Shown here: one piece after another, positions 380 to 45,375 of the stretch
Position numbering within the stretch: position 1 is the stretch's first letter
How the letters are laid out: the number at the start of each line of letters is the position of its first letter
Assembly (NCBI GenBank): GCA_003510435.1
Contig: DOMK01000009.1
Span: 24,675-88,674, forward strand
Origin: Candidatus Magasanikiibacteriota bacterium
GTDB taxonomy: Bacteria > Patescibacteriota > Patescibacteriia > Magasanikbacterales > UBA922
Reading direction: 5' to 3'
DNA length: 64,000 nucleotides
Notes under the pieces: generated by a model
What the model was told of the DNA's origin: nothing
Databases searched by the model: none
Seen by the model: the letters and a program-made list of their open reading frames with translations, nothing else
Program-made: the position numbers and the translations under genes

Positions 380-1288
380 ATGAAAAGTATCCAAGTCCCC
401 TGCTCGGCCATTGCCCAAAAATTAGGCATTCCTGGCGATGTTTTTCTCAAACGAGAAGATCAACACAAATACGGTTCGCATAAAGGTCGGTCTCTCCCTA
501 TAATGATAAAAAAATATTTCAAAGAGGAAGGTATAACAAATTTTGTCATTTCTTCTTCTGGAAATGCTGCTCTCGCTGCGATCAACTCTATTCAAGTCCA
601 CAACCGCAATAATCCAAGTAAATTAAAACTTACTATTTTTATTGGTAAAAAAATTGATCCAAAAAAATTAAAAGTTCTTTTGGCTGTGATTGATGATGTT
701 AATATAAAACTAGAACAAGTAGAACGACCAAAACAAACTGCTTTTAAAATTGATAAAGATGGTGAAGCAAAACTTCTAAGACAATCAACTGATGATAGCG
801 CTTTGACTGGTTATTTTGAATTAGCTCAAGAACTTGATAAAATTCCTAACTTGCAAGCTATCTTTGTCCCTACTTCTTCTGGCACCACTGCCCAGGCACT
901 GGGTGAAGCTTTCCAAACTGAATTTTTAACGCAAAAACCACAAATTCATATTGTGCAAACCAATTCTTGCCATCCCATGGCCGAATATTTTCAACCAGAT
1001 TATTTAAAAAATCATCCTTATGCTAAGGCAGAAAAATCTATAGCTGGTGCGATTGTTGACAACATTGCTTTTCGTAAAAAAAAAGTTATTAATACAATTA
1101 AAACCAGTGGCGGATTTGGTTGGATTGTAGACAATGAAGATCTAAAAGAAGCTATGGAACTAAGTAAAGACGGTTGTCATTTAGTAATTTCTTCCAACTC
1201 GGCTTTATCAATTGCCGGATTAAAAAAAGCCGTAGAAAACGACTTTAAATTCACTGGTAATGTTGTCTGTTTGATTACCGGGATGTAA
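380..1288 (+). CDS. PLP-dependent fold-type II enzyme, threonine synthase-like (short form). The ORF track starts at a GTG at 365; the ATG at 380 is more likely.
   Basis: KREDQHKYGSHKGR matches K-x-E-x-x-NPTGSFKDR, and SSSGNAALAAIN matches ASTGNTSAAxAAY. It is divergent from the LysW-like ORF. Confidence 0.55.
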   Translation: MKSIQVPCSAIAQKLGIPGDVFLKREDQHKYGSHKGRSLPIMIKKYFKEEGITNFVISSSGNAALAAINSIQVHNRNNPSKLKLTIFIGKKIDPKKLKVLLAVIDDVNIKLEQVERPKQTAFKIDKDGEAKLLRQSTDDSALTGYFELAQELDKIPNLQAIFVPTSSGTTAQALGEAFQTEFLTQKPQIHIVQTNSCHPMAEYFQPDYLKNHPYAKAEKSIAGAIVDNIAFRKKKVINTIKTSGGFGWIVDNEDLKEAMELSKDGCHLVISSNSALSIAGLKKAVENDFKFTGNVVCLITGM

Positions 1289-1369
1289 AAACATAAATCA
1301 CATATCATGTATCACATAACAAATTTCAACATTCCAGTTATATATCAATCACCTGTTATGTGATATGTG

Positions 1370-2071
1370 TCATATGTTACGTGAGAATATGATACTCACA
1401 ATATTTCCAGGATCATCTTTGGTTCCATTTCCACCTTTGGTGGTGTAATACTGGTCTTGAATTTTAAGGCCAGTTTTTTTAAATATATTTTCTAATTCTT
1501 CCAAAGTAAAACCATGATAATATCTCTCTCCCAAAACTTCACTTTGTGAATTCATCCACGGGATCAAAAAATCTCCAGATTTAAATTCATTAAACTTTCC
1601 ATTGGCTACCAATTTTTGCGCTGTGTTGGAATACATGTTCCAATTAGTCATTATAATATACGAACCTGATTTTAATACTCGCTTCATTTCTTGCAATGAT
1701 TTAATTCTAGATTCTTCATCTGGTAAATGATGAAAAGTGGCAATGCAATACACCACATCAAATTCATTATCTTTAAATGGCAACTTAGTCATCTCGCCTA
1801 TTCTAAAATCTATGCCAGAAAATTTTTCTTTGGCAATTTTTATCTGTTCCTCACTCTGATCCATACCAATATATTTCACATCTTGAAAATCCTGGAAAAG
1901 ATGGTATAATCTGCCTGACCCACAACCAAGGTCAAGGACTTTAAAACCATCCTTTGTATATTTTTGTAAAGGTTTTAAATCATCCCAAAGATAGCGCCGA
2001 GTCTTTGCAAACAGATGAGCAATTTTATTATAAGTTTCTCTATTAAGTTTAATCAAATCCTTATCCTTCAT
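1370..2071 (-). CDS. class I SAM-dependent methyltransferase
   Basis: VLDLGCGSGRL motif I and FDVVYCIATFHHL motif. Confidence 0.7.
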   Translation of the reverse strand: MKDKDLIKLNRETYNKIAHLFAKTRRYLWDDLKPLQKYTKDGFKVLDLGCGSGRLYHLFQDFQDVKYIGMDQSEEQIKIAKEKFSGIDFRIGEMTKLPFKDNEFDVVYCIATFHHLPDEESRIKSLQEMKRVLKSGSYIIMTNWNMYSNTAQKLVANGKFNEFKSGDFLIPWMNSQSEVLGERYYHGFTLEELENIFKKTGLKIQDQYYTTKGGNGTKDDPGNIVSIIFSRNI

Positions 2072-2087
2072 AATAATCAGCTTAAAT

Positions 2088-2140
2088 TAATATTAGTATA
2101 GCATTAGTATCATTAGTATGAATTAGTATATTAGTATCGC
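2088..2140. repeat. tandem ATTAGTAT octamer array (6 units) in the divergent promoter region between the methyltransferase and elp3
   Basis: TATTAGTATAGCATTAGTATCATTAGTATGAATTAGTATATTAGTATCGC. Confidence 0.7.
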
Positions 2141-2145
2141 ATATT

Positions 2146-3816
2146 ATGAATATAGAACAAATAATCACGAAAATTATATCCTTTCAACCCACTACCCGGG
2201 CTGAATTTGATGATGTAAAAAGAAAAGTCTGTAACAAACTCTCAATTAACCAAATTTCTAATCGCGACCTGCTACAAGCTTACCAAAATTTATTAAAAAA
2301 GAAAAGAGTTGAGCCAGACAAAATTTTGGAAAGATTCATGCGTAAAGCTGATATTAGAACCTTATCTGGCGTAGCCGTTGTCACCTCCCTCTGTAAGCCC
2401 TATAATTGCCCTGGAAAATGCATTTACTGTCCAACTGAGGCTAGAATGCCAAAAAGCTATTTGGCCAGTGAACCAGCCGCTGCCAGAGCCCTGGCTCTGC
2501 AATTTGACCCTTATGAGCAAATGACCAGACGAATAGAAATGCTAAGGCTCTCTGGTCACCCCACTGACAAAATTGAATATATTATAAAAGGCGGATCTTG
2601 GAATGTCTATCCATTAAAATATCAATACTGGTTTATATTGGAATCTTTCCGGGCGGCAAATAATCTCGAACGAAGTGAGAGATCCCTTTTCGAAGCCTCT
2701 TCAAATGCATTAAAAAGCGATTCCTCAGTCGCTTCGCTCCTTCGGAATTTAAAAAAAGAACAAAACTACAATGACAAGATTGCAAAACACAAAATAATTG
2801 GCCTCACTCTAGAAACCAGACCCGACTGCATCACTCCAGACACAATCCATCACATGCGCCAAATGGGTTGTACAAGAATCGAACTGGGTTTGCAAGCGCC
2901 AGATGATAAAATTTTAAAATTGGTGAAACGCGGACACACAGTAGAGCAATTTAAAGACGCAATGCTTTTACTTCGTCAAGCTGGGTTTAAAGTTGATTTG
3001 CATTTTATGCCTGACCTCCCTGGTACTACTGCCAAGCATGATGTAGAGATGTATAAATCATTATTTACTGATCCTGGCTTTAAACCAGACATGGTAAAAA
3101 TTTATCCGTGTACTGTAATTAAAACGGCTGACTTGTATAAATGGTATAAACAAAAAAAATATAAACCATATTCAGAAAAGAAATTATTTGAAGCGTTAAT
3201 TGTCATGAAAATTAGTACGCCTCGTTATTGTCGTATCTCTAGATTGATTCGGGATATTCCTGATAACGAAATTATGGGCGGAAACATGATTACCAATCTT
3301 CGTCAAAATTTAAAAAAGGAAATGGCCATACGCGGACTAAAGTGCGAATGCTTGCGTTGCCGTGAAGTTGGTCACTCCACTCTACCACCTAACCACCTTA
3401 CCACTCTACCACCTAAATTGTTTGTTGATAAATATGAGACAACTGGTGGAACAGAATATTTTTTAAGTTATGAAGACAAAAAACGACAAGTGGTTTATGG
3501 TTTCCTGCGCTTGCGTTTACCCAACAAAGAAAAAAATAACTCAAACCTTTCTAGCCTTTTGGGCTTTTCAAGCCTTTCAAGCATTTCTTTTATTCGCGAA
3601 CTCCACACTTACGGTCAACTACTTGAACTAGGTACAAAAAATAAATCTGCTAGCCAGCACAAAGGTTTGGGTAAAAAATTAGTTGAAGAAGCTGAAAAGA
3701 TTGCCAAAAAAAATAGATATAAAAAACTAGCTGTAATTTCTGGGGTGGGAGTGCGTGGGTATTATCGAAAACTGGGGTATAAATTGGAAAAAACGTATAT
3801 GACAAAAAACATATAA
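2146..3816 (+). CDS. elp3: Elp3-like radical SAM / GNAT acetyltransferase (tRNA U34 carboxymethyluridine synthase homolog)
   Basis: CPGKCIYCP radical SAM Cx4Cx2C motif. The C-terminal GNAT region contains GLGKKLVEEAEKIA. Length is 556 aa, with low-complexity inserts (TLPPNHLTTLPP, SSLLGFSSLSS). Confidence 0.85.
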   Translation: MNIEQIITKIISFQPTTRAEFDDVKRKVCNKLSINQISNRDLLQAYQNLLKKKRVEPDKILERFMRKADIRTLSGVAVVTSLCKPYNCPGKCIYCPTEARMPKSYLASEPAAARALALQFDPYEQMTRRIEMLRLSGHPTDKIEYIIKGGSWNVYPLKYQYWFILESFRAANNLERSERSLFEASSNALKSDSSVASLLRNLKKEQNYNDKIAKHKIIGLTLETRPDCITPDTIHHMRQMGCTRIELGLQAPDDKILKLVKRGHTVEQFKDAMLLLRQAGFKVDLHFMPDLPGTTAKHDVEMYKSLFTDPGFKPDMVKIYPCTVIKTADLYKWYKQKKYKPYSEKKLFEALIVMKISTPRYCRISRLIRDIPDNEIMGGNMITNLRQNLKKEMAIRGLKCECLRCREVGHSTLPPNHLTTLPPKLFVDKYETTGGTEYFLSYEDKKRQVVYGFLRLRLPNKEKNNSNLSSLLGFSSLSSISFIRELHTYGQLLELGTKNKSASQHKGLGKKLVEEAEKIAKKNRYKKLAVISGVGVRGYYRKLGYKLEKTYMTKNI

Positions 3817-4878: not shown

Positions 4879-5277
4879 ATGAAACAAACCATCATTTGTT
4901 CAGGTCCAGTAATAATTGAGAGCGATAAAGTCTTATTAGTCAGGGAACAAAAAAGCTATGGTATTACTCCTTGGCTTTTTCCTGGTGGCAAAGCCGAACC
5001 AAATGAAACTGATCCACTAGAAATTTGCAGACGAGAAGCTAAAGAAGAAGTTGGGATTGATTTAGAAATTATTAAACAATTAACTACTACAGAAGCATCT
5101 AGTTGGCGCGGATTAAATAAAAAATATATTTTGTACCACTATTTAGCAAAAAGAATTGGTGAAATAAAACCAGGTGAAGATATTGTAGAATGGGCTTGGA
5201 TAGATATAAATAATTTACCAAAAGATTGCAATAAAAATGTTTACGAAATAATTGTTGATTATAAAAATATGTTGTAA
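4879..5277 (+). CDS. NUDIX hydrolase
   Basis: Nudix box GGKAEPNETDPLEICRREAKEEVGI. Confidence 0.85.
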   Translation: MKQTIICSGPVIIESDKVLLVREQKSYGITPWLFPGGKAEPNETDPLEICRREAKEEVGIDLEIIKQLTTTEASSWRGLNKKYILYHYLAKRIGEIKPGEDIVEWAWIDINNLPKDCNKNVYEIIVDYKNML

Positions 5278-5321
5278 AAAAACCTATAACCTATTTACTA
5301 AAACCTATAACCTATTTTTTT

Positions 5322-6572
5322 ATGAACAAAATTTTATTAAAAGACTACGATCCAATAATTCAACAAGCCATAACCAATGAACTTGCTCGCCAAGAACAAG
5401 GTCTAGAAATGATTCCATCGGAAAACTTTGTCTCATTGGCAGTCTTAGAGGCTTTAGGTTCAGTCCTGACTAATAAATATTCCGAAGGTTATATTGGCAA
5501 AAGATATTATGGCGGTTGTGAATTTATTGATACGATTGAAGGTGTTGCCATTGACCGCGCCAAACAAATTTTTAGTGCTGAACATGTAAATGTCCAACCA
5601 TTATCTGGTGCTCCTATGAATATTGCTGTTTATTTTGGTCTGATGGAACCAGGTGACACAATTCTTGGTATGGATTTGTCTCATGGTGGACATCTTACTC
5701 ATGGACATCCTGTAACTTACATGGCAAAAGTATTTAATTTTATTCGTTATAAAACCAATGCTGAAGGAAAAATTGATTTGGATAATTTGCGTCAAATGGC
5801 TCTAGAACACAAACCAAAAATGATTCTTGTTGGTTATAGTGCTTATTCTCGAGAAATTGAATATGAAAAAATAAAAGCCATTGCTGATGAGGTCGGCGCT
5901 ATCACTATGGCCGATGTCGCCCATATTGGCGGACTGATTGCTGGCAAACAAATGATTAATCCAGTGCCAATTTTTGATGTCGTCACTACCACTACGCACA
6001 AAACTCTACGTGGACCACGTGGAGGCATGATTATGTGTAAAGAAAAATTTGCTAAACAAATTGATAAAGCAGTTTTCCCCGGTCTTCAAGGTGGACCACA
6101 TGAAAATAATATTGCTGCCAAAGCAGTATCATTTAAAGAAGCTCTGGAACCAGAATTTCAAGAATATTCTAGACAAATTAAGGCTAATGCCAAAGTATTA
6201 GAAAAAAAGTTTTCCGATTGGGGTTATAAATTATGTTTTGGTGGCACAGATAATCATTTATTATTAGTTAATTTATTTTCTTCCAAAGGTATTACTGGTA
6301 AACAAGCTCAAATCGCTCTAGATATCGCCGGTATTACCCTAAATAAAAATATGATCCCTGATGATCCAAGAAGTCCAATGGATCCATCTGGCATTCGTTT
6401 TGGTACTCCAGCTCTCACAACCAGAGGCATGAAAGAAGCCGAAATGGAAATCATTGCTAATTGGATGAATGAAGGAATTATGAATTGGCAAGATGAAACA
6501 AAACTTAAAAGTATTAAAGCTGATGTAATTGAATTAACTAAAAAGTTTCCTCTTTATCCAGAGCTCCAATAG
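5322..6572 (+). CDS. glyA: serine hydroxymethyltransferase
   Basis: SENFVS, HGGHLTHG and TTTTHKTLRGPRGG motifs; 416 aa. Confidence 0.95.
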   Translation: MNKILLKDYDPIIQQAITNELARQEQGLEMIPSENFVSLAVLEALGSVLTNKYSEGYIGKRYYGGCEFIDTIEGVAIDRAKQIFSAEHVNVQPLSGAPMNIAVYFGLMEPGDTILGMDLSHGGHLTHGHPVTYMAKVFNFIRYKTNAEGKIDLDNLRQMALEHKPKMILVGYSAYSREIEYEKIKAIADEVGAITMADVAHIGGLIAGKQMINPVPIFDVVTTTTHKTLRGPRGGMIMCKEKFAKQIDKAVFPGLQGGPHENNIAAKAVSFKEALEPEFQEYSRQIKANAKVLEKKFSDWGYKLCFGGTDNHLLLVNLFSSKGITGKQAQIALDIAGITLNKNMIPDDPRSPMDPSGIRFGTPALTTRGMKEAEMEIIANWMNEGIMNWQDETKLKSIKADVIELTKKFPLYPELQ

Positions 6573-18417: not shown

Positions 18418-21400
18418 TTAAATAACTATCGACACCAATCTCCCTTTTACATAAATAACTTTTTTCGGTTCCTTACCTTCTAACCATTTCTGTACTTTGT
18501 CTGATGCAAGTGCTAATTTTTTTATTTCTTCTTCACTAATATCCACTGGCACTTGAAATTCATCACGTACTTTACCATTTACTTGTGCCACTACAGTAAT
18601 AACGTCATCAATAATTAATTTTGGATCATATTCTGACCATTCACTCAAAGCAATGCTGTCTTTATTTCCCAAATCAGCCCATAATTCTTCACAAAGATGT
18701 GGGGCGAAGGGAGAGAGTAATTTAAGGAGTAAGGAATAAGGAGTAAGGAATAATTGTTCCTCTTTACTCATCTCATTTACTAAAATCATCAGTTGTGCAA
18801 CCGCGGTATTAAAATGCATCGCTTCAATATCTTCACTTACTTTTTTTATAGTCTGATGCAACAAAGTATCAATTTTCGTATTTCGTAATTTCGTATCTTT
18901 CGTAGTTCGTATCCCCAAATTCCACACCTTCTCCAAAAATCTCCGCACTCCAACCACTCCATTCGTATCCCACGCCACTGCTTGGTCAAATGGCCCCATA
19001 AACATTATATAAGTCCTGAAAGCATCAGTGCCAAATTTTTCTACCATCTCATCTGGGTTTATTACATTCCCTCTGCTCTTACTCATTTTTTCACCATCAG
19101 AAGCCAAAATCATGCCATGTGAAGTACGTTTTTTATATGGTTCACTCGTTGGCACCAAACCAATATCAAATAAAAATTCATTCCAAAATCTAGAATACAA
19201 TAAATGCAAAACTGTGTGCTCCATTCCCCCATTATACCAATCAACTGGATTCCAATAATCCATTTTTTCTCTATCCCAAATATATTCACCATTTTTTTCT
19301 TTCATCATGGTATAAGCTAAAAAATACCAAGAACTACCAGCCCAATTTGGCATAGTATCAGTTTCTCGTCTCGCTTCACCACCGCAAACCGGACAAATGG
19401 TATTTACCCACTCATCAATATGCGCCAATGGAGATTCGCCATTGTCAGTTGGTTCATATTTTGCTACTTTTGGTAATTCAAGTGGTAGAGATGATTCTGG
19501 AAGTGGAATCCAGCCAGTATTTTCTAGGAGTTGCAATACCATTGGCTCTTCAGATGCTGTAAAATGTACATCTTCAGGTCTTGCTAAAACTAAAGTTCCA
19601 TCTAATTTCTTTTCCAAATCTCTTAAATCCTTTTCAAATATTGTTTTAAAATCAATATCTCCTAAAATTATAAATTCATTACTTAATTTTTTTATCTTTT
19701 CAAAATCAAAATTCCAATCACAACTTTTTTCTACCACAGGACGTATCTTATCTGGAAATTTTGCTGTCACAACTGGATCAAGAAGTAAAACTTTAGCCAC
19801 TTTTTTATTTAATTTTTCTAATAATTTATATACAACAACTCCACCTAAACTATGGCCAACCAAAATTGTATTTTCATCAATTTTGGTATTTTTTAAAATA
19901 TATTCAACTTGTTCATCAATATTTGGTTCATTGGTATTTGGTAAATCGGGACAAAACACAGTATTTCCCTGCTTTTCTAAAATTTGTTTCATCCACGGCT
20001 TCCAACCTTCACCTGAATAGGACATAAATCCATGAACAAAAACATAATGATGTTTTTTATTTTTACAATTTTCACAATAAACCAATGGGATTGGTTCACC
20101 CCAATAACGCTGACGAGAAAATACCCAGTCGCGAAGTTTGTAATTAACTGCCCGTTTACCTAAATTATTTTTTACAATATATTCTATAATATCTTGTCTT
20201 ACTTCATCCCACTTTCTACCTTTAAAATCAATTGGCTCTTCTAAAATACCATTCTGTTCACGATAAAATATTTCTGTACTACGCACTTTTTCTGCCAATT
20301 CTTTGTCCTCAGGGAACAATACTGGGTGTAATGGCAAATCATACATTTTAGCAAACTTATAATCGCGTTCATCATGAACTGAACAACCAACAATGCCAGT
20401 GCCATAATCCATTAGAGCAAAACTTGCTACCCAAATTGGTAAATTGCGCCCAATACCCAAATAATTTTCTGAATAACGGCCAATAAAAATACCTTCCATA
20501 TCACTATCTATATCAAACTTATCACCAGCTTTTTTCTTTTTTATTTTTTCCACAAATTCCATTACTTCTTTTTCATGTTCAGTGCCTTTTACCATTTCAT
20601 AAACATAAGGATGTTCTGGAGCAATAATTACAAAAGTTTGAGCCATAAAAGTTTGCGGAATAGAATCATAAACTTCAAATTCCAAATTCATGTCTTTTAT
20701 TTTGTGTTTAAAATTAATACCTTCGGATCGTCCAATCCAATTCTGCTGTTGAATTTTTGCTTGAGGAATATAATCAACAGTTTCCAAACCTTGTAATAAC
20801 TTATCAGCATATTTGGTAATTGAAAGCATCCACTGTTCTTTATTTCTTTTTTCTACTGGACCACCACAACGTTCGCATTTACCATCTACAACTTCCTCAT
20901 TAGCCAAACCAATTTTACAGGAAATACACCAATTGATTGGCATAGCTTTTTTATAAGCCAAACCGTGTTTGAATAATTGTAAAAATATCCACTGGGTCCA
21001 TTTGTAATATTTTGGATCAGTAGTATCTACTGCCCTATCCCAAGCAAAACTATAACCAAGCATTTTTAATTGACGCGTAAAATTGGCAATATTTTCGGCT
21101 GTCACTTCGGCTGGCGGTCGACCAGTTTTAATGGCAAAATTTTCTGTCGGCAGTCCAAAGGCATCAAAACCAATCGGGAACAAAACATTTTTTCCTTGCA
21201 TTCTTTTTTTACGACAAATCACATCCATGGCTGTAAATGGTCGTGGATGACCAACATGAAGACCAGCTCCTGATGGATAAGGAAATTCTATCAGACCATA
21301 AAATTTTTCCCTGCCCTGAGTCTTTACCGAAGGGCTTTCCTCCGTAACTTCAAAAATTTTATTGTCTTCCCAATATTTTTGCCATTTTTTCTCGCCTTGT

Positions 21401-21477
21401 TCTTCTAAAAATTCCTGATATGTTTTCATATAATTATACTTTTTTATAATAAAAGCTATCGGCACTCCCCTTGCCAC
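18418..21477 (-). CDS. leuS: leucyl-tRNA synthetase carrying an inserted YdeN/RBBP9-family serine hydrolase domain (about 190 aa). The likely start is MKTYQEF at 21429.
   Basis: HVGHP (HIGH) and KMSKS motifs; a CP1 region (IIAPEHP, GTGIVGCSVHDERD); the anticodon-binding end motif LLSPFAPHLCEELW. The insert lies between YCENC and CPVCGG and contains VFVHGF and ENTILVGHSLGG. Confidence 0.95.
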   Translation of the reverse strand: MARGVPIAFIIKKYNYMKTYQEFLEEQGEKKWQKYWEDNKIFEVTEESPSVKTQGREKFYGLIEFPYPSGAGLHVGHPRPFTAMDVICRKKRMQGKNVLFPIGFDAFGLPTENFAIKTGRPPAEVTAENIANFTRQLKMLGYSFAWDRAVDTTDPKYYKWTQWIFLQLFKHGLAYKKAMPINWCISCKIGLANEEVVDGKCERCGGPVEKRNKEQWMLSITKYADKLLQGLETVDYIPQAKIQQQNWIGRSEGINFKHKIKDMNLEFEVYDSIPQTFMAQTFVIIAPEHPYVYEMVKGTEHEKEVMEFVEKIKKKKAGDKFDIDSDMEGIFIGRYSENYLGIGRNLPIWVASFALMDYGTGIVGCSVHDERDYKFAKMYDLPLHPVLFPEDKELAEKVRSTEIFYREQNGILEEPIDFKGRKWDEVRQDIIEYIVKNNLGKRAVNYKLRDWVFSRQRYWGEPIPLVYCENCKNKKHHYVFVHGFMSYSGEGWKPWMKQILEKQGNTVFCPDLPNTNEPNIDEQVEYILKNTKIDENTILVGHSLGGVVVYKLLEKLNKKVAKVLLLDPVVTAKFPDKIRPVVEKSCDWNFDFEKIKKLSNEFIILGDIDFKTIFEKDLRDLEKKLDGTLVLARPEDVHFTASEEPMVLQLLENTGWIPLPESSLPLELPKVAKYEPTDNGESPLAHIDEWVNTICPVCGGEARRETDTMPNWAGSSWYFLAYTMMKEKNGEYIWDREKMDYWNPVDWYNGGMEHTVLHLLYSRFWNEFLFDIGLVPTSEPYKKRTSHGMILASDGEKMSKSRGNVINPDEMVEKFGTDAFRTYIMFMGPFDQAVAWDTNGVVGVRRFLEKVWNLGIRTTKDTKLRNTKIDTLLHQTIKKVSEDIEAMHFNTAVAQLMILVNEMSKEEQLFLTPYSLLLKLLSPFAPHLCEELWADLGNKDSIALSEWSEYDPKLIIDDVITVVAQVNGKVRDEFQVPVDISEEEIKKLALASDKVQKWLEGKEPKKVIYVKGRLVSIVI

Positions 21478-22300
21478 CAGTAATTTCCTCTTTTACAAAC
21501 AAAACTCTTCCACTCTCATCAATTACTGTATTATTTTTACTAGAAATCAATGAACCTTTAATTGTCTCAAATGATGGCCCTGAAATCATAATAACATCTC
21601 CAATATTCATAATCCGATATAATTCACTAATTACGCTACTCACATATTTCTTTACTAAATCAGAATTATAACCATCCTGTGTATCCTCTTGTATTCCGCA
21701 AAGCAAAACATTTCCTCCGTAATTATCTGGAATGGAACGAACAAAATTTAACATTTCTTCTCTCAAAACATAAAGCTCCATAGCTTTACCATCGGGTCTC
21801 TCAACCTTGTCATACATTTCTTTCCTTGGGCATATATCAACTCCTACATATTCATTTGCTCCATATTGTGCTAATACTTCTGCCAAATCCTCAATTAGTA
21901 AATCATTTCCCCCACAACCTAAATCAAAAAAATTTTTACCATTTATAAGTTCGGCTATTCTTTTTTTATATGTCTCAAATTCTTCTATAAACCTCTGACC
22001 TTCACGTGGTGGTTTAATATCACTAAGAAATAAATCTGCAAATGGTATTTGTGACAAAACAAAAGGATGTTTACGTTCATCAAATTTTATTACCTCCCTT
22101 GGTTTAATAGGACGATTAAAACGAGCGCGTAATTCAACGACTTTTTTCTTAGAAAATTCCTGATTAATTAAATAGTCAGCATATTTTTTATCTTCATATC
22201 TTTTTCCTTCTCCACTTTTCATATTTTGAACCAAAAATAAGGCTTTTACTTGCCTAAAGAATAATATAGATATTTTAGCTAAAAACCCTATATTTTGCAA
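21434..22300 (-). CDS. SAM-dependent methyltransferase-like protein. The start is probably MKSGEGKRY near 22222.
   Basis: FFDLGCGGNDLL motif. Confidence 0.5.
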   Translation of the reverse strand: MQNIGFLAKISILFFRQVKALFLVQNMKSGEGKRYEDKKYADYLINQEFSKKKVVELRARFNRPIKPREVIKFDERKHPFVLSQIPFADLFLSDIKPPREGQRFIEEFETYKKRIAELINGKNFFDLGCGGNDLLIEDLAEVLAQYGANEYVGVDICPRKEMYDKVERPDGKAMELYVLREEMLNFVRSIPDNYGGNVLLCGIQEDTQDGYNSDLVKKYVSSVISELYRIMNIGDVIMISGPSFETIKGSLISSKNNTVIDESGRVLFVKEEITGGKGSADSFYYKKV

Positions 22301-22318
22301 GTTTATTTTGCAAGTTTA

Positions 22319-22347
22319 TTGACCTAACTTAGAGTACATAGTAAAAT
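22319..22347 (+). promoter_or_regulatory. sigma70-like promoter TTGACC-17-TAAAAT
   Basis: Hexamers at 22319-22324 and 22342-22347. Preceded by a TTTTGCAAGTTTAT direct repeat. Confidence 0.5.
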
Positions 22348-22380
22348 TAACAGTAGGACAACTCTCACCTGGAGGCCAAG

Positions 22381-22569
22381 ATGGCCCATGTTCTGGATCT
22401 TCGCGGCTCAACCATGCCACTGGCCGAACAGATCAAGACTGGGATTGCTCTCATCATGGTGGTGCCTTTCATCACAGCCTTCCTGATGAAGAGCAAATTT
22501 AGGGAGCTAAAGGCTAGGTGGTGGGACACGTTCGTCTCAGATGTCACCACTATAACAGGTGACGAATGA
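22381..22569 (+). CDS. hypothetical 62-aa membrane peptide with GC-rich codon usage and a GGAGG SD
   Basis: MAHVLDLRGSTMPLAEQIKTGIALIMVVPFITAFLMKSKF...; GGAGG lies 7 nt upstream; the local GC is atypical. Confidence 0.35.
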   Translation: MAHVLDLRGSTMPLAEQIKTGIALIMVVPFITAFLMKSKFRELKARWWDTFVSDVTTITGDE

Positions 22570-22675
22570 CAGACAAAAGGGGGTTCACGTGCGACTTCTT
22601 TGCCAACCGGTAAGAAAGGGGGTGGAAGTCGCTCAGTTGGTTTAGCCCATCAAAAGGTGGATTAAACCAAATAAA

Positions 22676-22702
22676 GAATTCCGAATTTAACGGAATTTTT
22701 TA
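22676..22702 (+). terminator. rho-independent terminator (GAATTCCG / CGGAATT stem followed by a T-run)
   Basis: Hairpin plus TTTTTT. Confidence 0.55.
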
Positions 22703-22703
22703 T

Positions 22704-22732
22704 TTGACAAAATATATTTATATAATTACAAT
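22704..22732 (+). promoter_or_regulatory. sigma70 consensus-like promoter TTGACA-17-TACAAT
   Basis: Hexamers at 22704-22709 and 22727-22732. Confidence 0.5.
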
Positions 22733-22960
22733 ACTTACTCAACTTCACCTAACTCCGCTGTCAGTGCTGGTTTGGAGTCAGGTGTTGTTTGTGGGCATCG
22801 TGACATGTCGACAAAACCATGGAACCGGGGACTATTAGTAGTGACAAGCGAAAGTAGCGAAATCGGGGCAAACCCCCGTTCCCCATCTGGGTGCCAAACC
22901 TAGAATTACCGTATTCCGACGGTAATGTTTCCCAAAAGTGGTTTGACACACCCTTAATTT

Positions 22961-22991
22961 GTCATGAGGTCGGCAGTTCAAGTCTGCCTAG
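22961..22991 (+). other. tRNA-Pro 3'-half-like fragment (variable loop, T-arm, acceptor 3' strand)
   Basis: GAGGTCGGCAGTTCAAGTCTGCCTAGGCCCA matches the 3' portion of the tRNA-Pro at 45303-45375 in 29 of 31 positions. No 5' half was found. Confidence 0.6.
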
Positions 22992-23057
22992 GCCCATGGA
23001 CTGGGTGGTCACGATGAAGGGGGTGTGGGCGACGACAGCTAGCCCCTCCTCTAAAAC

Positions 23058-23090
23058 AAACCCTGTACCGTTCTGGTACAGGGTTTTATT
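23058..23090 (+). terminator. rho-independent terminator
   Basis: AAACCCTGTACC-GTTCT-GGTACAGGGTTT followed by TTTT. Confidence 0.7.
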
Positions 23091-23112
23091 TCCGTGTAAT
23101 CCTTTTTTCCGT

Positions 23113-24345
23113 TTAAATCCTTATTTTATTCGCCACTCTCTCAATTGCTTTAACAAAAGCAGCTGTTCGCATATCAATACTATATTTTTCTTTTGTTTCC
23201 CAAACTTCATCAAATGCCTGTACCATCATGGGTTCTAATTTGGCAAAGACTTCTGCTTCAGTCCAACGTTCATTTTTAATATTTTGTTCCCATTCAAAAC
23301 AAGACACCGTCACCCCACCAGCATTGGCTAATACATCTGGCACAAGAATAATCCCACGTTCTTTTAATATTTCATCAGCCTCTGGTGTAGTTGGTCCATT
23401 AGCCATTTCTACTATTACCTTAGCTTTAATATTATTTACATTTTCTGTTGTAATTTGATTTTCCATAGCTGACGGTACTAAAATATCCACTGGCAATTCT
23501 AATAATTCTTCATTAGTAATATTTTCTGTATCAGGACAATCTTTTAAACTACCTGTTTTCTCTTTATGTTCAAAAACTTTGTCCAAATCCAAAGCAACAT
23601 TATTCCTTACAACCACCCCACCTTTGGAATCGCTAATAGCAACTACACTATAACCTTCACTCTTCAAAATTTTGGCCATAAAACCGCCCACATTTCCCAT
23701 ACCCTGAATGGCAACTTTGGTTTCACCTGGATTCAAATTTAATTTTTTGGCTAATTCTTTTACTACATAAACACCGCCCTGAGCCGTAGCAGTCTCTCTA
23801 CCTTCTGAACCACCGTCTTTGATCGCTTTACCAGTAATCACGCCTGGATCAGCCTGACCAAGCAATTTTTCAAATTCATCACGCATCCAACCCATAATAG
23901 TGGGTGTGGTATACATATCCGGCGCTGGAACATCTTTATCAGAACCAATCTCTCGCCAAATTTTTTGGATATAACCACGAGATAGTCTTTCCAATTCACC
24001 AACAGACAATGTTTTGGAATCAACAATTATTCCGCCTTTACCACCACCCATAGGAATATTTACTGTCGCACATTTTACCATCATCCAAAATGATAAAGCC
24101 TTTACTTCATCAATCGATACATTTTGGTGATATCTAATTCCACCCTTATATGGTCCCATAGCGTTGTTAAACTGTGATCTATAGCCGGTAAACACTCTTA
24201 CTTCTCCATTATCCATTTTTACTGGGATTGACACGGTTAACACGCGATCTGGTTGTTTCAAGATGGCATGAATACCTTTATCTAGGTTCATGATTTTGGC
24301 AGCTTTATCTAGCTGGGACATGGCGTTGGCGAATGGGTTGGACAT
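23113..24345 (-). CDS. gdhA: glutamate dehydrogenase (Glu/Leu/Phe/Val dehydrogenase family)
   Basis: KGGIRYH and NIPMGGGKGG motifs; 410 aa. Confidence 0.9.
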   Translation of the reverse strand: MSNPFANAMSQLDKAAKIMNLDKGIHAILKQPDRVLTVSIPVKMDNGEVRVFTGYRSQFNNAMGPYKGGIRYHQNVSIDEVKALSFWMMVKCATVNIPMGGGKGGIIVDSKTLSVGELERLSRGYIQKIWREIGSDKDVPAPDMYTTPTIMGWMRDEFEKLLGQADPGVITGKAIKDGGSEGRETATAQGGVYVVKELAKKLNLNPGETKVAIQGMGNVGGFMAKILKSEGYSVVAISDSKGGVVVRNNVALDLDKVFEHKEKTGSLKDCPDTENITNEELLELPVDILVPSAMENQITTENVNNIKAKVIVEMANGPTTPEADEILKERGIILVPDVLANAGGVTVSCFEWEQNIKNERWTEAEVFAKLEPMMVQAFDEVWETKEKYSIDMRTAAFVKAIERVANKIRI

Positions 24346-33365: not shown

Positions 33366-35593
33366 AAAGAAAGAATCTTATTTTTTATCTCTTCACTCGT
33401 CATCCCCGCCATTTCATAAACTTCGTCTACTGTACCGGATTTTAAATAATGGTCAATACTAATTCCGCGCTCAGTATAATCTGCTGGTAAAATAAACGGA
33501 TATAAAAATCCTTTCCAACCATTGTGAATTGGAATCGTAATCGCGCGTTCATCATCCGAAAAAATACTATTAGCTTTTTCCGGATTATTTTTTCTTAATT
33601 CTTCAAACAATTGTGGTGAAGTCACAGCTAACACTTTTACACTCAGACCCTGTGCTTCCAAATCTGGCACAATTTTCATAGTATTCATCATTGGAATAGA
33701 TCCTGAAACTGCCAAAACGATGTCTGTTTTTTTGTTTTCTTGATTTTTTGCTTTATTACTTTCATAAAAAACATACGCCCCATTCACCGCATCTCCCGGT
33801 TTGGAATTTCCTACACTTCTGTCAAACACAATAGTATCTGGACGAGACACTGACAAAGCAATCGGTTCACCTTTTTCCAAAGCATAAAATAACATTTCAA
33901 TTGTTTCATTAGCATCTAGTGGCTTGTAAACTTTTATTCCTGGGTAAGCCGTAAACATACTCATCCAATACATTCCTTGATGAGTTGGACCATCTTCTCC
34001 AGTCTCTGGACCATCATGAGCCGCTTGCATAATAAAAAACCCTTTATTCTTTGGATTCAAATGATTACCAATCAAACCTAAACGCACACAATTGGTCATC
34101 ATAGAAGTAAACACCGCATAAGTAGAAAAAATTGATACTGGAGCAAAACCACCCGGCAATCTATCTCCTGTCATACCCACACTCATCATAGCCATGTTTT
34201 GTTCGGCAATCCCCCAACGAATTCCCCGACCAAGAGGATTTTGGACAGTCATTTCACCATAAACATCCTCAGCTTTTTGCGTCAAAATTGATTTAGATAA
34301 ATCACCTGTCCCCGCCCAGAAAAAAGCGGTTTGTTTCATGAGCCACAGATAAAACGCTTCGCTAGCTTTTCTTGTTGCCACTTTTGTACCAGGAGCAAAA
34401 TTTAATTCGGCTGGCAATTCACTCGGACGTTTAATATCAAGAGGATTCACCATTGGTCTATCGCCTAACTTTACTTTCATCTTTTCAACCAATGCATTCT
34501 GATCGCTGATCACTGATCTTTGCACATTGACTCTTTCTTCAATATATTTTGCAAGTTCATCAGTTATTTGTTCTTCCACAAACTTTATATCATCAATCAC
34601 TTGTCCTTCTACACCCTGAATATCAAACCCCAAACCTTTCATTATTCCTACATAATCCTCATGCTTGGCTGGTGAACCATGTGAACTCGCTGTATTTTCC
34701 AACTTTCCATAATGTTTACCTTTTATACAATGAGCCAAAACTACAGTTGGGGCATTGTTTTCGAACACTTTTTGTGCAGCCAATTGATAAGCATAAACCA
34801 GTTCCAAAATATTATGTCCATCCACTTCAATCACATTCCAGCCCATTCCCTGCCAATGATTAATATATGGAGAATTGATTACTTCATTAATATCACCATC
34901 AATTCCAAAATGATTATAATCAAGTGAAACAATTACATTATCAGCTCCGACTGCTTTCAAAACATTGCGTGCTTCATAGCTCATTCCTTCTTCGCTCTCG
35001 GCATCGCCCATAAACACCCAAACATTAGTATCTAGTCCAGATGATTTGTGAGCAATGGCCATGCCACCAGCCGCTGACAAACCATGTCCAGATGGACCAG
35101 TCGCCACGTCAGACAAAGGATAATAATTTTCAATATGTCCTTGGGGACCGTCATGGTGGCGGAAACGCAATAAATCTTCTGGCAAGACGGCTTCTATTTT
35201 TTTTGCATCAAAATCAATTCCCACTTTTCTTAAAGCACTATAAATCAAACTTAATCCACTATAAAGCCCTGGTGAACAGTGTCCAGCACTCCACACCACA
35301 CGATCACGTCCAGAATTTTTTGGTTCCAGTGCATCAAACTTCATGGCTCCACCAAGTACCATAGCCAAAAATTGTTCTACCTTAGAAGAAGATCCACCAG
35401 GATGCCCTGAATGTGAGGCTTCTAAAGAAGAAAAAATAAAACCACGCATAATGCGGGCCATTTCATTAAACTTATCCACATCAATTCCTTCTATACTAGC
35501 CAAATCTAAACCTCGTAAATCTAGATAATTTTCTGTTTTTAATTTGTTTATTTCTTCTGTGTTAAAAAGATTAATGGACATACAAAAAAACAA
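33338..35593 (-). CDS. tkt: transketolase (full length, with insertions)
   Basis: SGHPGGSSS thiamine diphosphate region and GEDGPTHQ; 751 aa. Confidence 0.85.
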   Translation of the reverse strand: MFFCMSINLFNTEEINKLKTENYLDLRGLDLASIEGIDVDKFNEMARIMRGFIFSSLEASHSGHPGGSSSKVEQFLAMVLGGAMKFDALEPKNSGRDRVVWSAGHCSPGLYSGLSLIYSALRKVGIDFDAKKIEAVLPEDLLRFRHHDGPQGHIENYYPLSDVATGPSGHGLSAAGGMAIAHKSSGLDTNVWVFMGDAESEEGMSYEARNVLKAVGADNVIVSLDYNHFGIDGDINEVINSPYINHWQGMGWNVIEVDGHNILELVYAYQLAAQKVFENNAPTVVLAHCIKGKHYGKLENTASSHGSPAKHEDYVGIMKGLGFDIQGVEGQVIDDIKFVEEQITDELAKYIEERVNVQRSVISDQNALVEKMKVKLGDRPMVNPLDIKRPSELPAELNFAPGTKVATRKASEAFYLWLMKQTAFFWAGTGDLSKSILTQKAEDVYGEMTVQNPLGRGIRWGIAEQNMAMMSVGMTGDRLPGGFAPVSIFSTYAVFTSMMTNCVRLGLIGNHLNPKNKGFFIMQAAHDGPETGEDGPTHQGMYWMSMFTAYPGIKVYKPLDANETIEMLFYALEKGEPIALSVSRPDTIVFDRSVGNSKPGDAVNGAYVFYESNKAKNQENKKTDIVLAVSGSIPMMNTMKIVPDLEAQGLSVKVLAVTSPQLFEELRKNNPEKANSIFSDDERAITIPIHNGWKGFLYPFILPADYTERGISIDHYLKSGTVDEVYEMAGMTSEEIKNKILSLSFRMNDSE

Positions 35594-37695: not shown

Positions 37696-37962
37696 TAAAA
37701 TATCAAATTCTAATCTAAAATAAATTATTCAAAATTTAACATTCGTCATTTTATTAGAAATTAGGTTAATTAGAAATTAGAAATTTTTTTGATTGTCATG
37801 GACAATCAAAAACTCCCCTCTACTCTAATTCTTTTTTAAAAAAGAACCAAAGCAGATTCGGGGAGTTTTTGTTTCCTCCTTTTTGGTTGTTGATTCCCTC
37901 CTCCGCGCCACACTGGCATGTTCCGATATCATCCAAGCCCTCCTAAAGAGCTGTTGGTTGTT

Positions 37963-38481
37963 TCAGCTTCCCTCCTCCGACTGAGGTAGAAGTTCGAAGA
38001 AGGGTTGTTCGGACGGCCACGTCCAGCAGAACGGACCGCTGGGCTCTTCGTCGGGCCCGTAGCCCGTGATGAATTGCCCACACTCCTGTTGATCAGTGTT
38101 ACATTCATGGTTGAATGAAATGTCCGGCATCTGGTAGTAGACTCGCCAGAACGCCTCCTGCTTGTAGTCGCGGTCACTGCACCCGGCCGTCATCTCGTCG
38201 ACCCAGAACATGATTGTGGGGTTCTTGTCATGAGAACAACATACTATTTGTCCTCTATCACCCACTCCCATGCAGTTGTGCAGGTCGCGAATACCCGGGA
38301 ACTCATGCCCGAAGTACGTCTCCACGACGTACCCGCCACTGATGGCGATCGGCACCGGCGTGCTGTCGCCCCACTTCACCGGGAGGCTGTTGTCGACCAG
38401 GATGGCCAGCGTCGCCAGGATGGCGAAACCGATGACCAACTTGCTGACGTACTTGCCCCGAAAGTCGACCTTGTTCAGCAT
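37963..38481 (-). CDS. hypothetical Cys/Trp-rich membrane-anchored or secreted protein (172 aa) in a high-GC island
   Basis: AAGGAGGG SD 9 nt upstream; N-terminal signal anchor; 7 Cys; GC3-rich codons unlike the host. Confidence 0.5.
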   Translation of the reverse strand: MLNKVDFRGKYVSKLVIGFAILATLAILVDNSLPVKWGDSTPVPIAISGGYVVETYFGHEFPGIRDLHNCMGVGDRGQIVCCSHDKNPTIMFWVDEMTAGCSDRDYKQEAFWRVYYQMPDISFNHECNTDQQECGQFITGYGPDEEPSGPFCWTWPSEQPFFELLPQSEEGS

Positions 38482-38505
38482 GATGAGACCCTCCTTCTGT
38501 GAGTT

Positions 38506-38598
38506 CTACCACCACCCCATACCCTTGGTGATAATCGCAGCCAACACAGCCGCGATCACGAAAAACGGGGTCCATCGCCCCTCCATGAAACGACTCAT
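38506..38598 (-). CDS. hypothetical 30-aa hydrophobic peptide MSRFMEGRWTPFFVIAAVLAAIITKGMGWW in the high-GC island (not in ORF track)
   Basis: GGGGGAGGGGG SD directly upstream; in an operon with the 172-aa ORF. Confidence 0.4.
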   Translation of the reverse strand: MSRFMEGRWTPFFVIAAVLAAIITKGMGWW

Positions 38599-38788
38599 CG
38601 CCCCCTCCCCCAAGGTTGGACAAATTTGAATTTACACTACCAAAAAATTATGAGAAAGTCAACCAAACATCCAATACCCTGACACCAATAACCTCACCCC
38701 AACAAATACGGAATTGGGTTATTAGAGTCAGGTACAAGGAACGAGGGGTGTGGACAACTTTCCCCTTTCTCTCCATATAAAGAGAACA

Positions 38789-45186: not shown

Positions 45187-45302
45187 AAATATAAATGCTT
45201 GAAAAGCCTAAAACGCCAAAAAGGCTTGAAAGGCCTGTGGATAATTAATACCTATATTTTAGCATAATAAAAACCAAGCGACAATGCTTGATTTTTGATG
45301 TG

Positions 45303-45375
45303 TCGGGCTAGGCAGACTTGAACTGCCGACCTCGTCGTCCCGAACGACGCGCGCTACCAACTGCGCTATAGCCCG
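45303..45375 (-). tRNA. tRNA-Pro (anticodon CGG)
   Basis: Reverse complement CGGGCTATAGCGCAGTTGGTAGCGCGCGTCGTTCGGGACGACGAGGTCGGCAGTTCAAGTCTGCCTAGCCCGA folds as a cloverleaf with anticodon loop TTCGGGA. Confidence 0.8.

Follow-up and report, generated by a model that had tools for sequence, protein, structure and literature searches.

A GC-rich variable block downstream of gdhA in a Magasanikbacteria genome: two candidate mini-genes and a tRNA-Pro-derived hairpin

Related Systems and the Locus under Study

Type I toxin-antitoxin (TA) loci that include a convergent or adjacent small RNA (sRNA) are known from Bacillus subtilis (txpA/RatA and bsrG/SR4) and from Enterococcus faecalis (the par locus, fst/RNAII). 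Another group of small regulators, the RsaE/RoxS type, is formed by C-rich sRNAs of Firmicutes that target the Shine-Dalgarno (SD) sequence. To our knowledge, almost nothing is known about small proteins and regulatory RNAs in the Patescibacteria, or candidate phyla radiation (CPR), whose genomes are small and poorly annotated, and in the literature we found no prior description of type I TA systems or of GC-rich intergenic RNAs in this group. Here we describe a GC-rich intergenic block that lies next to gdhA, the glutamate dehydrogenase (GDH) gene, in a stretch of 64,000 nucleotides from a Candidatus Magasanikiibacteriota bacterium (assembly GCA_003510435.1, contig DOMK01000009.1, positions 24,675 to 88,674; this whole stretch is called the window, and all coordinates refer to it). 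The explanation that we favour, and to which we give an even chance, is that this block would be a lineage-variable island with two mini-genes, placed in a hot spot downstream of gdhA and convergent to it. Unit 1 (22319-22706) would be a self-contained cassette that runs from a promoter and an SD sequence, through the gene of a 62-residue single-pass membrane peptide and a structured 3' untranslated region (3'UTR), to a terminator. Unit 2 (22704-23091) would specify an sRNA of ~350 nt, a divergent member of an unannotated Magasanikbacteria family that can be defined by its own sigma-70 promoter and by a 3' module composed of a G/C hairpin, a CU-rich single strand (CCUCC) similar to an anti-SD sequence, and a terminator. 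The middle domain of unit 2 seems to have captured a 31-nt copy of the 3' half of the resident gene for transfer RNA (tRNA)-Pro(CGG), which probably is not a recombination scar.

Unit 1 is similar to the peptide genes of type I TA loci in that it would encode a short peptide with a single transmembrane (TM) helix and a charged tail, on a highly structured messenger RNA (mRNA) with its own promoter and terminator. The cassettes found in related genomes also resemble these loci, given that they are intergenic, strain-variable and sometimes arranged in tandem, and two of the loci compared, L022 and L023, have on the opposite strand a promoter-like site directed towards the 3' end. However, the window shows no sequence relation to a known toxin family, its codon usage is unusually GC-rich, no antisense RNA or complementarity has been demonstrated in it, and the peptide and sRNA genes are independent of each other in the relatives. 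Transcript 2, the RNA predicted from unit 2, is, like the RsaE/RoxS type, a stand-alone sRNA that has a sigma-70 promoter and an intrinsic terminator of its own, as well as CU/C-rich motifs (CCCCUCCUC; CCUCC in the relatives) that are unpaired next to the terminator; nevertheless, it is ~350 nt long versus ~100 nt, has no sequence or Rfam relation with these RNAs, and carries an embedded tRNA-derived hairpin. As in bacterial Y RNAs (YrlA) and in transfer-messenger RNA (tmRNA), a canonical T-stem-loop (GGCAG-UUCAAGU-CUGCC) is found within a larger structured RNA, but transcript 2 has only the T-arm and its flanks, without a D-arm mimic, an acceptor stem or a CCA end, it lacks an Rsr/Ro or SmpB context, and it gives no Rfam or ARAGORN match. 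Finally, the copy in the window resembles the attachment (att) sites located in tRNA genes in that it repeats the 3' part of such a gene, reaching from the variable loop as far as the discriminator base. In contrast to those sites it is inverted, no integrase accompanies it, no island is delimited, its acceptor strand is mutated in a way that extends a local hairpin, and it is placed inside the putative sRNA gene.

The GC-Rich Block and the Hot Spot Downstream of gdhA

The block (22348-23092) has a GC content of 0.478 versus 0.343 for the whole window, with 200-nt windows peaking at 0.50-0.51. It contains no long open reading frame (ORF); the longest credible one has 62 codons (22381-22569), and an ORF of 115 amino acids at 22891-23238 crosses the terminator of unit 2 into the antisense strand of gdhA. 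Both the elevated GC and the absence of a long ORF had been pointed out in a preliminary description of this DNA, and both were borne out. Gene order is the same in the closest relative, L001, whose GDH and neighbouring ORF are 90% and 84% identical to those of the window. The flanks of the two genomes align up to ~22285 and again from ~23086, and the segment in between (22286..23085 in the window) is replaced in L001 by unrelated sequence, with no interior similarity. L001 has at the same site a different block of 0.4 kb, with up to 55% GC in 200-nt windows, which carries its own TTGACA promoter, an SD sequence and an ORF of roughly 55 amino acids with a TM helix. The block is thus absent from the nearest relative, an unrelated cassette stands in its place, and the site is variable.

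The comparison was extended to ~40 Magasanikbacteria loci fetched through gdhA. A GC-rich island directly downstream of gdhA is present in at least 12 Magasanikbacteria loci, and these islands are mutually dissimilar by blastn. In spite of this, a recurrent order is observed on the strand convergent to gdhA: a TTGAC(A/T/C) promoter, a leader of 35-45 nt with a strong SD sequence, an ORF of 33-78 amino acids that usually contains one TM helix, a GC-rich and structured 3'UTR, and an intrinsic terminator. ORFs preceded by an SD sequence, with a TM helix and a high GC content at the third codon position (GC3), are convergent to gdhA in the window, L002 (two), L013, L019, L022, L024 and L044, and direct reading revealed one such ORF in L033 too. 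In the other loci the GC3 of the cassette ORFs ranges from 0.48 to 0.86, versus 0.28 for gdhA. Only one pair of orthologous cassette ORFs is available, L022a and L023b, in which 19 synonymous and 19 non-synonymous differing codons were counted among 57; judged by this codon pattern, it is the signature of a translated gene under purifying selection. A protein search with the L023b peptide returned only itself, and none of ten cassette peptides matched Pfam or PHROGs.

Two further metagenome contigs, found via identical-protein look-ups, carry the block at 100% identity; since such contigs give identical blocks, no covariation can be obtained within the lineage of the window itself. The block gave no BLAST match to phages or plasmids. 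A transposon-like insertion, with AAACCCTATA and AAACCCTGTA at the block borders as the target duplication, was considered and discarded: the block has neither terminal inverted repeats nor a transposase, and the copy on the right belongs to a terminator that is ancestral in the relatives.

Unit 1: A Candidate Membrane-Peptide Cassette

Promoter 1, TTGACC-17-TAAAAT (22319..22347, plus strand), scores 10/12. It is followed by the SD sequence GGAGG (22371..22375), 5 nt before the ATG at 22381, and by the 62-aa ORF (22381..22569, plus strand), an orphan whose product has a charged C-terminal tail and, by prediction, a single TM helix at residues 20-36. The helix corresponds to a hydrophobic stretch of 17 residues, TGIALIMVVPFITAFLM, with a mean Kyte-Doolittle hydropathy of 2.3, and the GC content by codon position is 0.49/0.40/0.62, the last value to be read against the GC3 of gdhA given above. 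The promoter, the SD sequence and the ORF with its TM helix and GC-rich codons had been proposed previously and were recovered at the positions proposed. It is plausible that this ORF is a real gene; its coding status is accepted because of the analogy with the related cassettes, in addition to the SD sequence, the TM helix and the GC3. The periodicity of GC with codon phase is borderline for both units and does not discriminate between them. Transcript 1 would end at an intrinsic terminator of the bidirectional type (22668..22706, plus strand), with arms of 16 nt that are 94% complementary and a T-tract. This transcript folds better than shuffles, with z at -4.5 when the terminator is included and at -2.0, against mononucleotide shuffles, when it is left off.

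The 3'UTR contains an element (22588..22645, plus strand) that is common to L022 and to two L023 cassettes. It consists of an 8-bp hairpin, in which GCGACUUC (22591-22598) pairs with GAAGUCGC (22625-22632), and of a loop sequence GCCAAC (22602-22607) that is complementary to the tail GUUGGU (22636-22641), so that a pseudoknot can be drawn. The motif GUCGCUCA[G/C]UUGG is found in unit 1, L022 and L023; over 18 nt the identity is 17/18, and the motif comprises the stem base GCGAC/GUCGC followed by UCA[G/C]UUGG. The stem is 100% paired in the four sequences that carry it (window, L022a, L023a and L023b), with two compensatory positions (U-A / G-C / A-U at one, C-G / U-A at the other). Its score was reached by 5/500 column shuffles, and slid registers pair in 25-53% of cells. 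The loop-tail pair changes as well in a compensatory way, CCAAC:GUUGG in the window and CCAAG:CUUGG in the relatives, a covariation that suggests an H-type pseudoknot. A covariance model of the element, R1, found only these four copies in 522 kb. A protein-coding origin of the motif was also considered: the UAG within GGUUUAG is the stop codon of a short ORF both in the window and in L023b. This frame is lost in L022, and because it is not kept there the RNA reading of the motif was preferred. Four matches to the motif in viral contigs were chance matches, all of them without the hairpin.

Other occurrences of these sequences were noted in the relatives. Peptide cassettes in tandem are present in L023 (5490-6330, minus strand) and in L022 (5440-6117), each of them ending in the conserved hairpin element. 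After the element, L022 and L023 have an AT-rich box (TATATTTACAAAATATATTGAAT), whose opposite strand is a promoter-like site that points back into the element. Several isolated contigs of ~540 bp hold just one such cassette. Weak R1 matches of 15 bits were found at orthologous positions in L012 (7411-7451, plus strand) and L014 (7036-7076, plus strand), with the sequence CAAGAUU...AAUCUUGGUCA[G/A]UUGAU[C/U]UAG; these may be distant relatives of the unit 1 element or ordinary terminators.

With respect to its function, the peptide of unit 1 would enter the membrane and could act there as a toxin-like or modulatory small protein. Its mRNA would be tightly folded, and the pseudoknot at the 3' end may stabilise the RNA.

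Unit 2: A Putative sRNA with a Conserved 3' Module

Promoter 2, TTGACA-17-TACAAT (22704..22732, plus strand), scores 11/12; as with promoter 1, it lies where the preliminary description had placed it. Transcript 2 (22739..23091, plus strand) is a predicted non-coding RNA of ~350 nt without any SD-preceded ORF longer than 17 amino acids. It too folds better than shuffles, with z at -4.6 when the terminator is included and at -3.0, against mononucleotide shuffles, when it is left off. The RNA is predicted to begin with a 5' hairpin (22746..22784, plus strand) formed by CACCUAACUCC and GGAGUCAGGUG, with GCUGUC (22757-22762) in the loop. In both the minimum-free-energy and the centroid structures this hairpin is followed by an expanded, multi-branched middle domain of ~220 nt (22796..23016, plus strand), which is closed by a 9-bp helix between CAUCGUGAC (22796-22804) and GUCACGAUG (23008-23016). 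The family 3' module (23014..23094, plus strand) is composed of a G-rich/C-rich hairpin at 23018-23050, the CU-rich stretch (23043-23051) already mentioned, an A-rich spacer and the terminator (23053-23091, plus strand). This terminator has arms of 17 nt and a T-tract, its core is CCCUGUACC-GUUCU-GGUACAGGG (23061-23083), and it is shared with the convergent gdhA. The terminators that had been proposed for the ends of the two transcripts are both present.

The last ~80 nt of transcript 2 are the only portion that has relatives. The sRNA family with this 3' module, as defined here, includes at least six relatives: L011, L013b, L017, L018, L021 and L033. Unit 2 shows the layout of the family, that is, a sigma-70-type promoter 150-350 nt upstream, no ORF, and an orientation convergent to gdhA; the position relative to gdhA is the same as in the window in L011, L017, L018, L021 and L033. 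With the terminators of L011, L018 and L033 that of transcript 2 shares 88-95% identity, although the GDH proteins of these loci are only 66-78% identical to that of the window, and the aligned 3' module shows compensatory pairs in both helices. A covariance model of the module, R2, added two members to the family, one downstream of gdhA in L017 and the other beside the gene for tRNA-Trp in L013. When a further model, R3, was built without the window, 23014-23094 was the top match in the 64 kb, with 33.1 bits and an E value of ~3e-6. In L013b, L017, L018 and L021 a 5' segment can base-pair with the 3' hairpin loop (GCCAG:CUGGC). A candidate counterpart in the window is a different 6-bp pairing of the GCUGUC of the 5' hairpin loop with GACAGC (23034-23039), for which we estimate a chance expectation of roughly 10%. 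Taken as a whole, transcript 2 is read as a probable divergent member of the sRNA family with an expanded and variable middle domain, whose CU-rich single strand would pair with ribosome-binding sites of the GGAGG type, possibly that of unit 1.

Three of the homologous sRNAs are unannotated genes of ~190 nt downstream of gdhA, at 1322-1507 in L017, 5490-5665 in L018 and 5278-5460 in L021, all on the minus strand. They start with GCCAGCUACU, and it is this 5' end that is complementary to their 3' hairpin loop; two CCUCC motifs are present, one in the 5' loop and the other in the 3' single strand. They match no Rfam family: none was found in four relatives in the sensitive mode, nor in 15 relatives at the gathering threshold. 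In L013 (7726-7061, minus strand) a cassette for a 33-aa TM peptide precedes an sRNA with the shared 3' module; this pair lies next to the tRNA-Trp gene and not to gdhA.

The tRNA-Pro-Derived Segment

The intact tRNA-Pro(CGG) gene of the window is located at 45302..45375 on the minus strand (66 bits). Positions 22966-22991 of unit 2 are identical (26/26) to 45333-45308 of this gene, a match that was found in 0/100 shuffles. Over the longer segment 22966-22996, which extends from the variable loop to the discriminator base, the identity is 29/31, as had been reported in the preliminary description, and both differences are in the acceptor strand (TAGGCCC vs TAGCCCG). The window contains exactly two copies of the segment, which are 22 kb from each other and on different strands. 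In unit 2 the segment is part of a long hairpin of ~15 bp (22961..23001, plus strand) whose tip is the tRNA-Pro-derived T-arm, with the T-stem-loop at 22972-22988. As read from the sequence, the two substitutions turn the acceptor strand into GGCC, which pairs with the GGUC of the former variable loop; the T-stem-loop is intact, and flanks that do not come from the tRNA (GUCAUG / CAUGGAC) lengthen the helix.

It had been stated that transcript 2 ends with the tRNA segment. This is not the case: the segment is internal, and ~95 nt follow it in the transcript, including the conserved 3' module and the terminator. The alternative then put forward, a structured non-coding RNA with a tRNA-like 3' end, survives in part. 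The absence of a credible ORF, a folding better than that of shuffles and the match of the 3' end to the model derived from the relatives agree with a structured non-coding RNA, but the tRNA-like hairpin is not at its end.

No T-arm-like hairpin outside true tRNAs was found elsewhere in 708 kb of related sequence, none of the other members of the sRNA family carries the tRNA-derived segment, and a comparison of the segment with viral contigs gave 0 matches. Nothing in the block resembles the 5' half of tRNA-Pro. The T-arm of Escherichia coli proK differs from that of the tRNA-Pro in the window. The T-arm sequence is specific to the tRNA-Pro of this lineage, and therefore the piece was probably copied from the resident gene or from that of a close relative. 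It is, as far as the compared genomes indicate, a one-off capture in this genome and not a trait of the family. The T-loop hairpin could serve as a stabilising or protein-binding structural module. An inversion that would account for the opposite orientation of the two copies was considered and rejected, given that gene orientation is uniform and GC skew monotonic across 23-45 kb.

Weighing the Explanations

Several observations weigh against the two mini-genes proposed here. Promoters of the quality found are common in an AT-rich genome such as this one, as 53 sites with a score of at least 10/12 occur in 128 kb of strand, ~1 per 2.4 kb; both promoters are plausible, but not rare, and their position would count for more than their score. 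For the 62-aa ORF neither a word-indexed search of 5.8 billion protein clusters nor an exhaustive HMMER search gave a homologue, the matches being the ORF itself and one repetitive TM artefact, and its codon-phase GC signal is weak (p ~0.05). The score of 60 bits that R1 gives to the window is not independent, because the training set of this model included the window, and the RNA families rest on 4-7 sequences, with small covariation counts. The terminator supplies most of what R3 assigns to the 3' module, as the reverse strand reaches 27.3 bits. Upstream of ~23010 transcript 2 aligns with no relative, and when both transcripts were compared by blastn with 200 fetched loci only the terminator matched. 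The closest relative, L001, is without the sRNA module, which must then be dispensable. The predicted duplex between units 1 and 2 is not better than those of shuffles, 16% of which are better.

A first alternative is that the block is a type I TA-like module, in which unit 1 encodes a small membrane toxin whose translation is limited by its structured mRNA, the RNA antitoxin being either transcript 2, acting in trans through CCUCC, or a cis-antisense RNA. The peptide is of the usual size (<~60-70 aa) and combines a single TM helix with a charged tail, the unit 1 mRNA is GC-rich and strongly structured, and the cassettes are intergenic, strain-variable and, in L023, placed in tandem. In addition, L023a, L023b and L022b have on the opposite strand a conserved promoter-like site (TTGATT-16/17-TATACT or TACACT) that faces the conserved 3' element, and the pairing of a peptide gene with an sRNA recurs in L013. 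The position of the L023 antisense promoter, however, is not kept in the window, and the site that is present there on the minus strand, TTGTCT-16-TG-TATAGT at 22576-22549, scores only 9/12, a chance-level value. Neither the duplex energy given above nor the Pfam toxin families, to none of which the peptide matches, lend support to a toxin with its antitoxin. Moreover, the two kinds of gene also occur apart: the sRNA is found without a peptide gene in L017, L018 and L021, and peptide cassettes are found without the sRNA in L001 and L013a. We thus consider a TA module attractive but unlikely.

Alternatively, the block could be non-functional foreign debris, GC-rich DNA taken up by a naturally competent epibiont and retained at a permissive intergenic site, the ORF, the promoters and the folds being incidental. 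GC and GC3 far above those of the host would follow from such an origin, and so would the orphan status of both the ORF and the RNA, the frequency of promoter-like sites, the absence of the block from the nearest relative, and the existence of other alien GC-rich islands, in the window (37.9-38.7 kb) and in the relatives (e.g., a 618-aa ORF with 67% GC in L002). What makes this explanation quite unlikely is the ordered architecture, with -35 and -10 boxes, a correctly spaced SD sequence, a small ORF and a terminator, that recurs in unrelated cassettes of many genomes. One of the cassette ORFs appears to be under purifying selection, the 3' elements carry compensatory changes, and the block is fully conserved in two further metagenome contigs. 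In the tRNA-derived part at least, a foreign origin is contradicted by the 26-nt identity to a resident tRNA.

In the preliminary description the tRNA piece was interpreted as the attL/attR scar of an integrative element targeted to tRNA-Pro. It is true that the 31-nt duplicate spans the portion, from the variable loop to the discriminator base, that integrases typically duplicate, and that it lies within DNA of alien composition; nevertheless, we regard a scar as very improbable. The copy and the only tRNA-Pro of the window have opposite orientations and are 22 kb apart, with uniformly oriented housekeeping genes (such as those for IF-2 and thioredoxin) between them. The tRNA-Pro gene has as neighbours a T2SSE/PilT ATPase, a penicillin-binding protein and a Mur ligase, and a Pfam scan of the neighbours of the tRNA and of the block revealed no integrase, nor any Pfam domain in the ORFs beside the block other than gdhA. 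A direct-repeat partner is lacking in the 64-kb window at up to three mismatches, the inverted intact tRNA-Pro being the only counterpart, and no island is delimited. The copy would not restore the tRNA, because UAGGCCC-A set against the tRNA 5' strand CGGGCUA would mispair at 1:72 and 4:69. No viral contig carries the segment. The relatives show unrelated cassettes or the sRNA without a tRNA piece, L001 has a different cassette and not an empty site, and the transcript that encloses the segment has a 3' module ancestral to the locus.

A divergent housekeeping RNA (tmRNA, RNase P RNA, 6S RNA or signal recognition particle RNA), or an intron-containing or split tRNA-Pro, could be imagined from a GC-rich block in an AT-rich genome with a T-arm, a strong promoter and a terminator, but it is extremely unlikely: a sensitive Rfam search over 22200-23200 yields terminator-like noise (at best 25 bits, for Thr_leader, which is the terminator), ARAGORN finds neither a tRNA nor a tmRNA in the block, no upstream 7-mer pairs fully with UAGGCCC (the best candidates reach 6/7), there is no similarity to a tRNA 5' half, and a housekeeping RNA is effectively refuted because the block is absent from the syntenic L001. 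The short-range Rfam run was relied on for the block because the whole-window run at the gathering threshold missed the true tRNA-Pro, although a search of 281 nt gives it 66 bits; speed filters can lose hits on 64 kb.

Having considered these alternatives, we continue to favour a lineage-variable island with a peptide cassette and an sRNA gene.

Neighbouring Genes and Other Observations

To the left of the block an ORF of 262/288 amino acids (21434-22222/22300, minus strand) is listed, and to its right lies gdhA (23113-24345, minus strand). The left neighbour had been labelled as a methyltransferase. This label has no support from Pfam: the 262-aa protein (21434-22222) matches neither Pfam nor PHROGs and has only three homologues among the 5.8 billion protein clusters. 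It contains a DLGCGGN motif that is reminiscent of motif I for S-adenosylmethionine binding.

A perfect 13-nt tandem repeat, TATTTTGCAAGTT x2 (22291..22316), is flanked by two divergent promoters, that of the 262-aa ORF and that of transcript 1. It overlaps the -35 box (TTGCAA) of the former and abuts the -35 box of promoter 1. A 15-nt exact copy of the repeat sequence is found at 34543-34557, inside a coding region (E 0.04). The repeat could be an operator or a chance match.

A second alien island is present in the window at 37880-38640 (minus strand), with up to 65% GC in a genome of 34% GC. It contains a TM ORF of roughly 30 amino acids and, behind its own promoter, a 172-aa ORF (37963-38481, GC3 0.76), and it gave no Pfam, PHROG or plasmid match; because of this island, GC-rich alien DNA is not confined to one site. 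The L002 locus, with 44% GC overall, has a 618-aa multi-TM ORF of 67% GC upstream of gdhA (1100-2956, minus strand) and two GC-rich TM-peptide ORFs of 68 and 65 amino acids downstream of it (5250-5810). The L002 ORFs add to the evidence that these genomes harbour alien genes rich in GC.

A metagenome scan with the pattern GTTCAAGTC-N58-88-AACCCTGNACC, which is too loose, gave 120 chance matches, none of them homologous. Finally, in the leucyl-tRNA synthetase (LeuRS) of the window (18418-21477), and also in L201 and L203, precomputed Pfam assignments indicate an inserted alpha/beta-hydrolase domain (Abhydrolase_1 / Ser_hydrolase); the length of LeuRS in this lineage is 1015-1245 aa.

Concluding Remarks

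The block is best filed as a new small-protein gene plus a regulatory sRNA, both of known kinds, with the tRNA-derived hairpin as a curiosity. A bolder proposal would be that these loci represent an undescribed class of hyper-variable GC-rich mini-gene cassettes at Magasanikbacteria recombination hot spots, functioning as type I TA-like or membrane-targeting competition modules, together with a lineage-specific family of anti-SD sRNAs, one member of which would have exapted the T-arm of tRNA-Pro as a functional tRNA mimic to which, e.g., RNase P, TruB or the CCA-adding enzyme could bind. This remains speculative, and we hold that it has little chance of being correct.

By itself the locus opens no major question, and its practical value lies in annotation and in the choice of targets for transcriptomics. 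It provides two candidate RNA elements that are absent from Rfam and show first signs of covariation, and it is a clear case in which a tRNA fragment ought not to be taken for the trace of an integration event. With regard to the biology of the CPR, the locus would indicate that GC-rich 'non-coding' patches in these AT-rich genomes may be organised mini-genes, running from promoter to terminator, with a fast turnover between close relatives.

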